A stretch of 64,000 bases of DNA from Escherichia coli (GTDB lineage Bacteria; Pseudomonadota; Gammaproteobacteria; Enterobacterales; Enterobacteriaceae), in NCBI RefSeq assembly GCF_048403405.1, contig NZ_CP183129.1, one strand, 5' to 3'. The notes under the pieces are model-generated. The model was not told where the DNA came from. It worked only from the letters and a program-made list of their open reading frames with translations, and did not search any database. Shown in pieces: positions 42,091 through 46,876 of this stretch. Made by a program: the position numbers and the translations under genes. How positions within the stretch are numbered: the stretch's first letter is position 1; each line of letters starts with the position of its first letter.

Positions 42091-42672
42091 ATGCGTCTGT
42101 GTGACCGAGATATTGAAGCCTGGCTTGATGAAGGCCGTTTGTCGATCAACCCACGTCCGCCAGTGGAGCGTATTAACGGCGCGACGGTGGATGTGCGCCT
42201 GGGCAATAAATTTCGTACCTTCCGTGGTCACACGGCAGCGTTTATCGATCTGAGCGGTCCCAAAGATGAAGTGAGCGCCGCGCTTGACCGCGTGATGAGC
42301 GATGAGATCGTTCTCGATGAAAGCGAGGCGTTCTATCTTCACCCAGGAGAGCTGGCGCTGGCGGTGACGCTGGAGTCGGTGACGCTGCCAGCCGATCTGG
42401 TGGGCTGGCTGGACGGGCGTTCTTCACTGGCGCGTCTGGGGCTGATGGTGCACGTCACCGCGCACCGTATCGATCCGGGCTGGTCTGGCTGCATTGTGCT
42501 GGAGTTCTACAACTCCGGTAAGCTGCCGCTGGCGCTGCGTCCGGGCATGTTAATTGGTGCGCTGAGCTTTGAGCCGCTTTCCGGCCCGGCGGCGCGACCT
42601 TACAACCGCCGTGAAGATGCGAAATATCGCAACCAGCAGGGCGCGGTAGCCAGCCGAATCGATAAAGACTAA
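42091..42672 (+). CDS. dcd: dCTP deaminase, 193 aa
   Basis: ORF track; recognised Dcd sequence. Confidence 0.9.
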
Positions 42673-42693: not shown

Positions 42694-44547
42694 ATGAGAC
42701 GATTTCTGACGACGCTGATGATACTCCTGGTCGTGCTGGTGGCCGGGTTATCTGCGTTAGTGTTGCTGGTGAATCCGAATGATTTCCGCGACTATATGGT
42801 CAAGCAAGTTGCTGCACGTAGCGGTTATCAATTGCAGCTCGACGGGCCACTGCGTTGGCACGTCTGGCCGCAGCTTAGTATCCTCTCCGGGCGAATGTCT
42901 CTCACCGCCCAGGGCGCGAGCCAGCCACTGGTTCGCGCCGACAACATGCGTCTGGACGTGGCGCTTTTACCACTACTGAGTCATCAACTGAGCGTTAAGC
43001 AGGTGATGCTAAAAGGGGCAGTGATCCAACTGACGCCGCAGACGGAAGCGGTGCGCAGTGAAGACGCTCCGGTTGCACCGCGCGACAATACCTTGCCGGA
43101 TCTGTCAGACGATCGCGGATGGTCGTTTGATATATCCAGTCTTAAGATGGCGGACAGCGTGCTGGTGTTCCAGCATGAAGATGACGAGCAGGTGACAATC
43201 CGCAATATCCGCCTGCAAATGGAACAAGATCCCCAACATCGTGGCTCATTTGAGTTCTCCGGGCGGGTTAATCGCGATCAGCGCGACCTCACGATATCCC
43301 TTAACGGTACGGTAGATGCTTCTGATTATCCGCATGATTTAACGGCGGCTATTGAACAAATTAACTGGCAGTTGCAGGGTGCAGATTTACCAAAACAAGG
43401 TATTCAGGGGCAGGGGAGTTTCCAGGCCCAGTGGCAGGAGTCACATAAACGCCTTTCATTTAACCAAATTAGTTTGACCGCCAATGACAGTACGCTGAGC
43501 GGGCAAGCACAGGTCACGCTGACAGAGAAACCGGAATGGCAGCTGAGACTGCAATTCCCGCAACTGAATCTTGACAACCTCATCCCGCTTAAAGAAACAG
43601 CGAACGGTGAAAACGGTGCCGCGCAGCAAGGGCAGAGCCAATCCACGTTGCCGCGCCCGGTCATTTCTTCGCGTATTGATGAACCGGCCTATCAGGGATT
43701 GCAAGGCTTTACGGCTGATATTTTGTTGCAGGCCAGTAACGTGCGCTGGCGCGGAATGAATTTTACAGATGTTTCCACGCAAATGACCAACAAGTCGGGT
43801 TTGCTGGAAATTACTCAACTGCAGGGCAAGCTTAACGGTGGACAGGTTTCGCTGCCGGGCACGCTGGACGCGACATCAATAAATCCGCGGATAAACTTCC
43901 AGCCACGGCTGGAAAACGTTGAGATTGGCACCATTCTGAAGGCGTTTAACTATCCGATTTCGTTGACTGGAAAGATGTCACTGGCTGGTGATTTCTCCGG
44001 TGCTGACATAGATGCCGACGCATTCCGCCACAACTGGCAAGGACAGGCACATGTCGAAATGACCGACACACGCATGGAAGGGATGAACTTCCAGCAGATG
44101 ATTCAGCAAGCGGTAGAACGTAATGGTGGTGATGTGAAGGCCGCTGAAAACTTCGATAACGTAACGCGTCTTGACCGCTTTACCACCGATTTGACGTTGA
44201 AGGATGGCGTCGTGACGTTAAACGACATGCAAGGTCAATCGCCAGTGCTGGCGCTGACAGGGGAAGGCATGTTGAATCTGGCAGATCAAACCTGCGACAC
44301 CCAGTTTGACATTCGTGTGATTGGTGGCTGGAACGGAGAAAGCAAACTGATTGATTTCCTCAAAGAAACGCCAGTACCGCTGCGGGTTTATGGCAACTGG
44401 CAGCAACTCAATTACAGCCTGCAAGTGGATCAGTTACTGCGCAAACATCTACAGGACGAAGCGAAACGTCGCCTGAATGACTGGGCCGAGCGGAATAAAG
44501 ATTCCCGCAATGGCAAAGATGTGAAGAAGTTGCTGGAGAAGATGTAA
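42694..44547 (+). CDS. asmA: Outer-membrane assembly protein AsmA, 617 aa
   Basis: ORF track; N-terminal TM anchor; matches AsmA as recalled. Confidence 0.85.
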   Translation: MRRFLTTLMILLVVLVAGLSALVLLVNPNDFRDYMVKQVAARSGYQLQLDGPLRWHVWPQLSILSGRMSLTAQGASQPLVRADNMRLDVALLPLLSHQLSVKQVMLKGAVIQLTPQTEAVRSEDAPVAPRDNTLPDLSDDRGWSFDISSLKMADSVLVFQHEDDEQVTIRNIRLQMEQDPQHRGSFEFSGRVNRDQRDLTISLNGTVDASDYPHDLTAAIEQINWQLQGADLPKQGIQGQGSFQAQWQESHKRLSFNQISLTANDSTLSGQAQVTLTEKPEWQLRLQFPQLNLDNLIPLKETANGENGAAQQGQSQSTLPRPVISSRIDEPAYQGLQGFTADILLQASNVRWRGMNFTDVSTQMTNKSGLLEITQLQGKLNGGQVSLPGTLDATSINPRINFQPRLENVEIGTILKAFNYPISLTGKMSLAGDFSGADIDADAFRHNWQGQAHVEMTDTRMEGMNFQQMIQQAVERNGGDVKAAENFDNVTRLDRFTTDLTLKDGVVTLNDMQGQSPVLALTGEGMLNLADQTCDTQFDIRVIGGWNGESKLIDFLKETPVPLRVYGNWQQLNYSLQVDQLLRKHLQDEAKRRLNDWAERNKDSRNGKDVKKLLEKM

Positions 44548-44558
44548 GACAAGTTATG

Positions 44559-44588
44559 CAGATGGCGGCGTCAATTTGTCGCCATCTG
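44559..44588. terminator. Stem-loop (cagatggcg-12 nt-cgccatctg) followed by tatttat; candidate terminator between convergent asmA and the antitoxin gene
   Basis: Perfect 9-bp inverted repeat read from sequence. Confidence 0.45.
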
Positions 44589-44599
44589 TATTTATAGCA

Positions 44600-44890
44600 C
44601 TAAGCAGCATGTGGATATTGAATTTCAATACGTTGAATATGCAATCCTGCATGAGCCATCATGGTGATCAATTTATCGATACTAAAGATCTGGATCTTAC
44701 CTCTGGCAAGTTCAGATATGCGAGGTTGAGTGACCCCTAAAGCAGACGCTGCCTGGGCCTGGCTAAACCCTTGTTGTTCAATCCAGTTATTAATGATCGT
44801 TACAAGTTCGGCACGGATCCGCATATTTTCCGCTTGTTCAGGGGTGTCACTCACCGCATCCCACACACTATCAAAGGTTTCAATTTTCAT
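44600..44890 (-). CDS. HTH (XRE/Cro-C1) antitoxin, HigA-like, 96 aa
   Basis: ORF 44600..44908; ATG at 44890 (MKIETFDS) preferred over the upstream TTG; HTH segment QAQAASALGVTQPRISELARGK; overlaps toxin stop by 11 nt. Confidence 0.75.
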   Translation of the reverse strand: MKIETFDSVWDAVSDTPEQAENMRIRAELVTIINNWIEQQGFSQAQAASALGVTQPRISELARGKIQIFSIDKLITMMAHAGLHIQRIEIQYPHAA

Positions 44891-45218
44891 TTTTCCGCTC
44901 CTGAACAAGTTCTTTATAGCGTCGTTTGGCTAAATCAACATCCGATTGACTGGTAGTCTGTGTTTTCTTTTGAAAACAATGCAATACGTAAACCGCTTCT
45001 TCAAATTTTGCGATATACATGACGCGATAGATCCCATCAGCATCGCGAGTACGAATCTCTCGCACACCAGGGCCGATAGTTGAAAAAGGTTTCCAGTCGT
45101 ATGGGTTTAACCCTTGTTGGATCCTGTCGAGTTGATAGCCAATTTCCTGTCGAGACGATTCTGGAAATGCGCGTAAATCGTCAAGACTGGTATCAAGAAA
45201 AGCCAGCTTTTTTCTCAT
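44880..45218 (-). CDS. RelE/ParE-superfamily toxin (HigB/Gp49-like), 112 aa
   Basis: ORF track; small basic protein upstream of and overlapping an HTH antitoxin (toxin-first order typical of HigBA); SD aaggatggag upstream. Confidence 0.7.
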   Translation of the reverse strand: MRKKLAFLDTSLDDLRAFPESSRQEIGYQLDRIQQGLNPYDWKPFSTIGPGVREIRTRDADGIYRVMYIAKFEEAVYVLHCFQKKTQTTSQSDVDLAKRRYKELVQERKNEN

Positions 45219-45255
45219 TACTCCATCCTTAGATTATACTAAATTTTGTATAAAT

Positions 45256-45284
45256 CAAATGCGCAGTTTGAACCTGCGCATTTG
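45256..45284. promoter_or_regulatory. Perfect 11-bp inverted repeat (caaatgcgcag-7 nt-ctgcgcatttg) beside the toxin promoter (-10 TATAAT at 45233..45238, minus strand); candidate autoregulatory operator and/or yegH terminator
   Basis: Read directly from sequence; lies between the yegH stop (45293) and the toxin start (45218). Confidence 0.5.
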
Positions 45285-45292
45285 ATGTTTTA

Positions 45293-46876
45293 TCACACTT
45301 CGTACTCCATCTCGCCATCCTTACGTAGCGGAATAATTTGCACCTTCTGCACGCGATGGCTTTCCACCTGCAACGTTTTAAGCAAATAATCCCCCACCTG
45401 AACTTCTTCGCCAGGTTTTGGAATACGCTGCAAATATTCCATCAATAGCCCGGCAATGGTGTGATATTCACGTTTTTCATCCAGCGGCAGCGGCACATAT
45501 TGCACCAGATCTTCCAGCGGCATATGACCATTCGCCGTCCAGGAACCGTCGGCATTCTTCTGAATATCATGGCGGGCGTCGATCTCTTCCACTTCATTCG
45601 GTAAGTTACCGGCAATGGTTTCTGTGACGTCACTTAATGTCACAATCCCTTCCACCGAGCCAAACTCATCCACTACAAAAGCAAAGTGTGTGCGGGCATT
45701 ACGGAACTGCTCCAGGGCAGGTAACAACGGCAAGGTTTCCGGGAACACCAGCGGCTGGCGAATCAACACCCGCAGGTTGAGCGGTTCGCCGCGCAGTGAC
45801 TGTTGTAGCAGGTCGATAACGTGAACAACACCGAGCAAATCTTCCGCGTCATCGCCATCAGTAACCACCAGTCGCGTGTGCTGATTTCGCTCCAGCAACT
45901 GGCGGATCTCGTCTTCCGGCGCGTTGAGATCGATATGCTCAATATCGTGGCGCGACGTCATAATGCTGCTGACGGTACGCTGGTTAAGATTAAGTACCCG
46001 CTCAATCATCCGCCGTTCCTGCGGATTAAAGATTTGCTGGTTACCATGATCCACCAGCATAGACGCGGTTTCGGCGTCCAGTTCCGCATCTTCTTTTTGC
46101 CCGCTAAGCAGGCGCATTACCGCTTCGGTAGTCCGCTGGCGCAGCGTCTGGTTAGCGGAAAGAAAACGTCGCCGGTTAAAGATAGCCAACTGATTGAGCG
46201 CCTCGATCATCACCGAGAAACCAATAGCAGCGTACAGGTAGCCTTTCGGAATGACGAAGCCGAAACCTTCTGCCACCAGGCTAAAGCCAATCATCAACAG
46301 GAAGCTTAAGCAGAGAATAACGATCGTCGGGTGACTGTTAACAAATTGCGTTAACGGCTTGCTGGCCATCAACATCAGGCTGATAGCGATAACGACGGCG
46401 GCCATCATGACCAGTAAATGGTCGACCATCCCGACGGCGGTAATCACCGAGTCGAGTGAGAAGATGGCGTCCAGTACCACAATTTGTGTCACCACCCCCC
46501 AGAACTTCGCACCTTTGCGTTGTGTGGGGTTATTGCTGTCTTTCCCCTCCAGCCGTTCGTTCAGCTCCATCGTGGCTTTGAACAGCAGGAAGAAACCACC
46601 AAACAGCATGATTAAATCGCGGGCGCTAAAGGTAAACGAGCGGAAGCTGAACAGCGGTTGAGTCAGGGTGACCAGCCAGGAGATTGACGCCAGCAGTAAC
46701 AGGCGCATTAACATCGCCAGCAGCAGCCCGGTAACCCGTGCGCGGTCGCGCTGCTTCGGCGGTAGTTTTTCGGCGAGGATGGCAATAAAGACCAGGTTAT
46801 CAATGCCGAGGACCAGTTCGATCACAATCAGCGTGATTAACCCGGCCCAGATAGACGGATCGGCAATCCATTCCAT
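45293..46876 (-). CDS. yegH: TerC-family integral membrane protein with CBS/CorC C-terminal domains, 527 aa
   Basis: ORF 45293..46942; start moved to MEWIADPS; matches YegH as recalled. Confidence 0.8.

Follow-up and report, generated by a model that had tools for sequence, protein, structure and literature searches.

The 64-kb stretch of Escherichia coli DNA analyzed here (the window) carries, on its minus strand beyond asmA, a two-gene toxin-antitoxin operon and then yegH. The operon and yegH are co-directional, and nothing else lies between them besides a perfect inverted repeat and the region of the toxin-antitoxin promoter. Such a position raises the question of whether the repeat serves the gene that ends on one side of it, the operon that begins on the other side, or both. 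An earlier note on this DNA had favored the last possibility and proposed that a single element may act as the autoregulatory operator of the toxin-antitoxin genes and, at the same time, as a transcription barrier against read-through from yegH.

A Perfect Inverted Repeat Follows yegH

The repeat, here called IR13, consists of two arms of 13 perfect base pairs that enclose a 7-nt loop (Table 1). Its core is GC-rich (UGCGCAG/CUGCGCA) and is flanked by AUCAAA and UUUGAU. The 11-bp inverted repeat that had been reported after the yegH stop codon is present, and its arms sit inside those of IR13. Also, its placement between yegH and the toxin-antitoxin genes is confirmed, as IR13 begins 6 nt past the yegH stop codon and its far end precedes the minus-strand TATAAT by 15 nt. 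IR13 is the sole perfect inverted repeat of at least 11 bp with a loop of 3–10 nt in the whole window. In forty dinucleotide-preserving shuffles of the window sequence, repeats of 11 bp or more number 0.15 on average, and none reaches 13 bp. Even when 3 mismatches are allowed, IR13 accounts for the only match in the window. The inverted repeat is real and statistically unusual.

Table 1. Features of the asmA-yegH region, in coordinates of the window.
Feature	Position	Strand	Remarks
dcd	42091-42672	+	
asmA	42694-44547	+	
Second hairpin, ATGCAGATGGCG-N12-CGCCATCTGTAT	44556-44591		Between asmA and antitoxin stop codons
Antitoxin gene (predicted)	44600-44890	-	96 aa; HTH_37/PF13744, XRE-type helix-turn-helix
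Toxin gene (predicted)	44880-45218	-	112 aa; Gp49/PF05973, RelE/ParE superfamily; ATG 45218-45216; RefSeq annotation
-10 hexamer TATAAT	45233-45238	-	Perfect; inside right half of the palindrome
Near-palindrome of 20 bp, TTATACAAAATTTAGTATAA	45234-45253	-	18-bp core 45235-45252; overlaps the -10; proposed antitoxin operator
U-rich tract UUUGAUUUAU	45250-45259	-	3' of the GC core in yegH sense; first 6 nt form the base of the 13-bp stem
IR13, ATCAAATGCGCAG-N7-CTGCGCATTTGAT	45254-45286	-	Proposed intrinsic terminator/3'-end hairpin of yegH; same shape on + strand
IR13 arm ATCAAATGCGCAG	45254-45266		+ strand letters
IR13 loop TTTGAAC	45267-45273		+ strand letters
IR13 arm CTGCGCATTTGAT	45274-45286		+ strand letters
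Tail GTTTTATCAC past the hairpin	45287-45296	+	Terminator-like call on + strand
yegH stop codon TGA	45295-45293	-	Sequence and RefSeq annotation

The Neighboring Genes Form a Predicted Toxin-Antitoxin Module

The gene for the toxin precedes that for the antitoxin, and the two share 11 nt. Domain matches are strong for both products (PF05973 with E 1.3e-29 for the toxin, PF13744 with E 4.4e-22 for the antitoxin), and the two genes have the features of a type II module of the Gp49/HTH_37 (HigBA-like) kind, encoding a predicted toxin and a predicted antitoxin. When the PDB was searched, only uncharacterized XRE proteins (2a6c, 2o38) matched the antitoxin, whose similarity to HigA chains was insignificant (E 0.24–0.38) and which left HigA2 from Vibrio cholerae unmatched, and the toxin profile gave a weak match to HigB from Streptococcus pneumoniae (E 0.016). 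The Salmonella diarizonae contig that harbors the closest non-E. coli homologue possesses, about 1.5 kb away, a second and different Gp49/HTH pair (L090/L091, 4135-5004), which adjoins a TraX-like gene in a plasmid-like context.

A Conserved Palindrome Over the -10 Is the Likely Operator

Homologous toxin-antitoxin loci were collected from plasmids of Pantoea and Serratia, from 80 species-representative genomes spanning α-, β-, γ-, and δ-proteobacteria, Acidobacteria, and actinobacteria, and from the closest relatives outside E. coli, i.e., Salmonella plasmid copies with 79–80% protein identity and an enterobacterial copy with 73%. An 18-bp palindrome with the consensus TATACAAAATTTTGTATA is present, with at most 4 mismatches, in 84 of the 95 homologous loci, and control regions of the same loci deviate from it at 7 positions or more. 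The loci that contain it are labeled L006 to L102 in our collection and come from proteobacteria, Acidobacteria, and actinobacteria. Mostly, the palindrome is located 10–20 nt upstream of the toxin start codon, and very short leaders are therefore implied. Its positions 2–4 and 15–17 are almost invariant and positions 6 and 13 co-change symmetrically, as expected of a site that would be read by a dimer. A search of the literature for the consensus string gave no hit.

In contrast to the palindrome, IR13 occurs in none of these 95 loci from many phyla and does not show the conservation within the family that an operator would be expected to have. The nearest relatives make this difference especially clear. 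Two Salmonella copies possess the 20-bp palindrome identical base for base and an unrelated sequence where IR13 sits in E. coli, and other enterobacterial copies keep the palindrome identical or nearly so. The claim that IR13 is the autoregulatory operator is therefore not supported, since even Salmonella modules with about 80% protein identity lack it while the other palindrome, over the -10, is intact.

It might still be argued that IR13 is bound by the antitoxin or the toxin-antitoxin complex as sole or auxiliary operator, whether or not it also terminates transcription. It is a perfect palindrome that adjoins the promoter, with a proximal arm spanning the -35 region (IR13 extends from about -28 to -60 relative to the predicted transcription start), and type II antitoxins do bind promoter palindromes (PMC11006873, PMC5906591, PMC10098735). 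However, the half-site ATCAAATGCGCAG of IR13 is unlike the conserved half-site TATACAAAA, and arms of 13 bp with centers 20 bp apart differ from the single palindromes of 18–19 bp known from this family and from V. cholerae HigA2. Furthermore, the same stem recurs in unrelated terminator-like contexts. Together with its absence from all homologous loci outside E. coli, these differences make a role of IR13 as operator very unlikely. Two other kinds of protein-binding site were rejected as well. TTGAT and ATCAA are present in IR13, but their order and spacing are wrong for an FNR-type site, and a LexA box was discarded on reading the IR13 sequence.

The antitoxin operator is very probably the palindrome at 45234-45253, because the palindrome is conserved throughout the family, is identical in Salmonella, and occupies the position that the operator of V. 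cholerae HigA2 has, and because antitoxins of studied relatives repress or bind their own promoters. IR13 probably lies outside the conserved regulatory apparatus and is probably not an antitoxin binding site.

IR13 Occupies the Place of a -35 Region

The TATAAT assigned to the toxin gene as its -10 is indeed a perfect hexamer, but it lacks an acceptable -35 at 16–18 nt upstream, and no minus-strand promoter was called by the consensus scan. There is no TTGACA-like hexamer at this spacing in the window, and a TTGATT is only 14 nt away from the -10. Most relatives possess a TTGNNN -35 at a distance of 17 nt from the -10; the TTGATT of the E. coli copy is contained in the arm of IR13 (45254-45261). 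The proximal arm covers the expected -35 position and is clear of the -10. The toxin-antitoxin promoter may be weak in the E. coli chromosomal allele. As the proximal arm takes the place of the -35 of the relatives and the window offers no normal -35, IR13 could affect the strength of this promoter.

One might go further and regard IR13 as a coupled terminator-promoter element. Its arm would then provide the only -35-like bases (TTGAT) of a promoter that has lost the normal -35 of the family, and a hairpin or cruciform, or else the traffic and termination of polymerases arriving from yegH, would tune how often the promoter fires. We regard such a coupling as highly improbable; if it were true, it would tie expression of a membrane protein gene to the toxin-antitoxin switch.

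IR13 Has the Shape and Position of an Intrinsic Terminator

The other role contained in the earlier proposal fares much better. A terminator or read-through barrier fits the anatomy of IR13, with its GC-core hairpin, A/U-rich flanks, and U-rich tails on both strands, and it fits a position just past a stop codon and between co-directional units; only the operator half of the proposed dual element is unsupported. As RNA, IR13 is predicted to fold with a ΔG of -20.6 kcal/mol (z -7.3) when read from the minus strand, i.e., in yegH sense, and with -19.6 kcal/mol (z -6.3) when read from the plus strand, both differing widely from shuffled sequence. A terminator stem-loop was taken to need 5 or more base pairs, several of them G-C, and a loop of 3–8 nt; IR13 provides 13 pairs, 6 of them G-C, and a loop of 7 nt. 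It is placed where a transcription unit would be expected to end, directly after the yegH TGA, and the gene that follows is equipped with a -10 of its own.

The tails deserve a closer look. A terminator was called on the plus strand only, with the tail GTTTTATCAC. On the minus strand, the tail past the full stem, UUAUACAA, is U-poor (3 U in 8) and gave no terminator call. Under a relaxed criterion, with the count starting right after the GC core, the tail reads UUUGAUUU, and its 6 U in 8 suffice for the same threshold. We consider IR13 to be probably an intrinsic (Rho-independent) terminator and the 3'-end hairpin of the yegH transcript, a function that we infer from its shape and position. 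Most likely, it is an ordinary terminator or insulator hairpin and as such a further instance of a well-known kind of element.

Its mode of action might be the following. A polymerase leaving yegH would transcribe the GC core, UGCGCAG-loop-CUGCGCA, and then the U-rich UUUGAUUUAU. A hairpin would form, the weak rU:dA hybrid would come apart, and the upstream AUCAAAU would pair with the U-tract, giving the full 13-bp stem. The yegH message would end about 45 nt beyond the stop codon, and read-through from yegH would not enter the toxin-antitoxin operon, whose transcription would then depend on its autoregulated promoter alone. Antisense transcripts heading toward yegH might be stopped at IR13 as well, since IR13 is symmetric and is followed by a T-rich tail also on the plus strand.

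Variation among E. coli genomes is in agreement with a hairpin in the yegH message. The IR13 region was found in 792 E. coli genomes, at one place per genome (median 1), and is nearly invariant across them although they belong to several lineages. The only frequent variant, present in 53 of the 792, converts a C-G pair of the yegH-sense RNA to U·G and creates an A·C mismatch in the plus-strand RNA. Rare variants consist of one genome with a terminal A-U pair broken and another with a changed loop base. Double compensatory changes occur in none of the 792 genomes, so that with one wobble change the variation is too small for an analysis of covariation. Small as it is, the variation fits an RNA hairpin that is read in the direction of yegH.

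This wobble change also bears on the possibility that IR13 acts mainly on the plus strand, where it would end antisense transcripts that otherwise enter yegH, originating from asmA read-through or from starts at plus-strand -10-like hexamers of the palindrome, and where its position after yegH would be secondary. In support of such an orientation, it is the plus strand on which a terminator was called, the hairpin is equally stable there, and TTCTCA-17-TATACT (45212-45240) points at it. On the other hand, the common variant preserves pairing in the minus-strand RNA and disrupts it in the plus-strand RNA, asmA has a hairpin of its own (44556-44591), and plus-strand promoter-like sequences are no more numerous than in shuffled sequence. 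A main function on the plus strand thus seems improbable to us, and we continue to favor termination in the sense of yegH. With regard to the plus strand itself, the palindrome generates -10-like hexamers there too, such as TATAAA at 45247-45252, and a transcript starting from the promoter-like TTCTCA-17-TATACT, which is aimed at IR13, would be stopped by the plus-strand side of IR13 after about 40–50 nt.

A scan of metagenomes for the IR13 stem matched 35 contigs, 2 of which represent this E. coli locus. The other matches are unrelated hairpins with differing loops and contexts, mostly placed between A-runs and T-runs, and the stem of IR13 may therefore be viewed as a generic terminator shape. 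None of the 35 matches provides a donor context for IR13. Terminator-like hairpins that are not homologous to IR13 are also encountered just upstream of the promoter in a few of the homologous loci, such as L013, L030, and L047. Searches with Rfam covariance models (44300-45600, both strands) gave no match at E values up to 1, and literature searches for yegH together with antitoxin, for Term-seq of EHEC, and for the palindrome sequence returned nothing on the asmA-yegH locus and no published transcript ends.

IR13 Belongs to One of Several asmA-yegH Alleles

The arrangement with the toxin-antitoxin genes is present in 844 of 5426 complete E. coli genomes (about 15%), among them O157:H7, O55:H7, ATCC 11775, and UM146. 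Between asmA and yegH, other E. coli genomes contain a REP element alone or a REP element plus 200–450 bp of unrelated DNA. At least five alleles of this polymorphic intergenic region exist (compared as L001 to L005), with lengths of about 67, 273, 292, and 450 bp, and of 745 bp in the toxin-antitoxin allele. Similarity between alleles ends exactly at the stop codon of asmA and at the stop codon of yegH, and hence the whole segment 44548-45292, IR13 included, is part of the toxin-antitoxin allele, which is specific to E. coli. IR13 is missing from genomes that lack the toxin-antitoxin pair and have a REP element or other sequence after yegH, from which it follows that IR13 is the only 3'-end structure of yegH in the toxin-antitoxin allele.

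In about 50 genomes the long query finds a match and the IR13 region does not. Among these are recombinant alleles whose promoter and IR13, together with the 5' portion of the toxin gene, have given way to K-12-type sequence. In one such allele, L005 (NZ_CP098880.1; locus coordinates 500-1340), an intact antitoxin gene accompanies a 5'-truncated toxin gene, leaving an orphan antitoxin. Matches to E. coli "plasmids" were rejected as separate contexts, as they are chromosome fragments with dcd and asmA. A genome labeled "DH5alpha" (L143, NZ_CP026085.1) has the toxin-antitoxin allele and the K-12 strain DH1 is of the REP type, so this label may be unreliable.

The opposite end of the segment carries a second hairpin (Table 1), which is likely the terminator of both asmA and the toxin-antitoxin operon. 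A related cassette beside asmA in another organism (L095, 84% toxin identity) has a counterpart at 655-690, GCGGATGGCGC-N8-GCGCCATCCGC, with a compensatory change from A-T to G-C that suggests a conserved, shared terminator. In L095 the contig breaks off within the palindrome, and another contig, identified via the antitoxin, extends no further, so that neither covers the position of IR13.

The location of IR13 right at the border of the allele-specific segment, with hairpins at both segment ends, might suggest that it has no regulatory role and is a scar of the junction or a structure at the DNA level that dates from the placement of the cassette, e.g., a recombination or transposition end or a site prone to cruciforms. 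The stretch containing IR13 and operator is flanked by a direct repeat of 9 nt, TACTCCATC, which could be taken in the same sense. However, the hairpins at the two ends do not resemble each other in sequence, and neither a transposase nor an integrase is encoded nearby. Neither the cassette nor the IR13 stem matches anything in the collections of phage and viral sequences searched. IR13 is found once per genome and is therefore not a repeated mobile-element end, and it is almost invariant in 792 genomes of several lineages, with a main change that keeps the pairing. As for the 9-nt repeat, its occurrence within 120 nt is near chance expectation. Altogether, an origin of IR13 as a scar devoid of function is unlikely, and a terminator remains the reading that we prefer.

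Two specific mobile structures were considered for IR13 and rejected. For an integron attC site, IR13 is too short and lacks the RYYYAAC/GTTRRRY cores, and a pair of IS200/IS605-like end hairpins is contradicted by the unrelated sequences of the two hairpins and by the absence of a transposase. The direct repeat TACTCCATC is exact over its 9 nt (45219-45227 and 45303-45311) and extends to 13 matches in 16 nt (45216-45231 versus 45308-45323). One copy lies in the ribosome-binding region of the toxin gene and the other in the last codons of yegH, so that they bracket operator and IR13; they could reflect microhomology used in a joining event or could be due to chance.

Implications for Studies of the Module

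The identification of IR13 gives a name to the probable 3' end of yegH in those roughly 15% of E. coli genomes that have the toxin-antitoxin allele, which is a matter of routine annotation. The conserved palindrome is the more notable element. For studies of autoregulation, the target should be the 20-bp palindrome at 45234-45253 and not the eye-catching 13-bp repeat, and the occurrence of its 18-bp core over the -10 across several phyla offers a ready-made operator prediction for this toxin-antitoxin family. Because IR13 probably insulates the promoter from yegH read-through, promoter fusions should include or omit it deliberately.

Comparison With Known Systems

With PF05973 and PF13744 domains, the toxin gene in first place, and overlapping genes, the pair in the window resembles Gp49/HTH_37 modules, and the "HigBA-like" members of this group include passenger pairs of Tn3-family elements (PMC7157771). 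In Gp49-type operons with reverse gene order, the antitoxins of HigBA2 from Acinetobacter baumannii (PMC5906591) and of ToxP/AntitoxP from Coxiella burnetii (PMC10098735) repress or bind their own promoters. The text consulted of PMC7157771, PMC5906591, and PMC10098735 does not mention a hairpin upstream that would belong to the module.

The best-defined operator for comparison is that of HigA2 from V. cholerae, which has been footprinted and is a single palindrome, TGTACGC-N5-GCGTACA, that begins downstream of the -35 and reaches across the -10 (PMC11006873). The palindrome at 45234-45253 belongs to the same size class (18–20 bp) and has the same position over the -10. Also the context is shared, namely a reverse-order operon under autorepression by an XRE-type antitoxin (PMC11006873), although for the window such repression is a prediction. 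Unlike the HigA2 operator, IR13 is larger (33 bp), is located upstream of the -10, and is not conserved in the family.

IR13 is more similar to the symmetric, "bidirectional" intrinsic terminators, with which it shares a GC core, a 7-nt loop, and A-rich 5' and U-rich 3' flanks that pair and thereby extend the stem. In contrast to typical members of this class, the U-tract UUUGAUUUAU of IR13 is interrupted and mostly absorbed into the stem, and whereas bidirectional terminators are situated between convergent units, IR13 separates tandem units. Finally, in K-12-type E. coli the same slot between asmA and yegH is filled by REP/BIME elements. These are multi-copy and follow a family consensus, whereas IR13 is found at a single place per genome and is unrelated to them in sequence; nevertheless, both plausibly serve the same purpose, as hairpins at the 3' ends of adjacent or converging genes.
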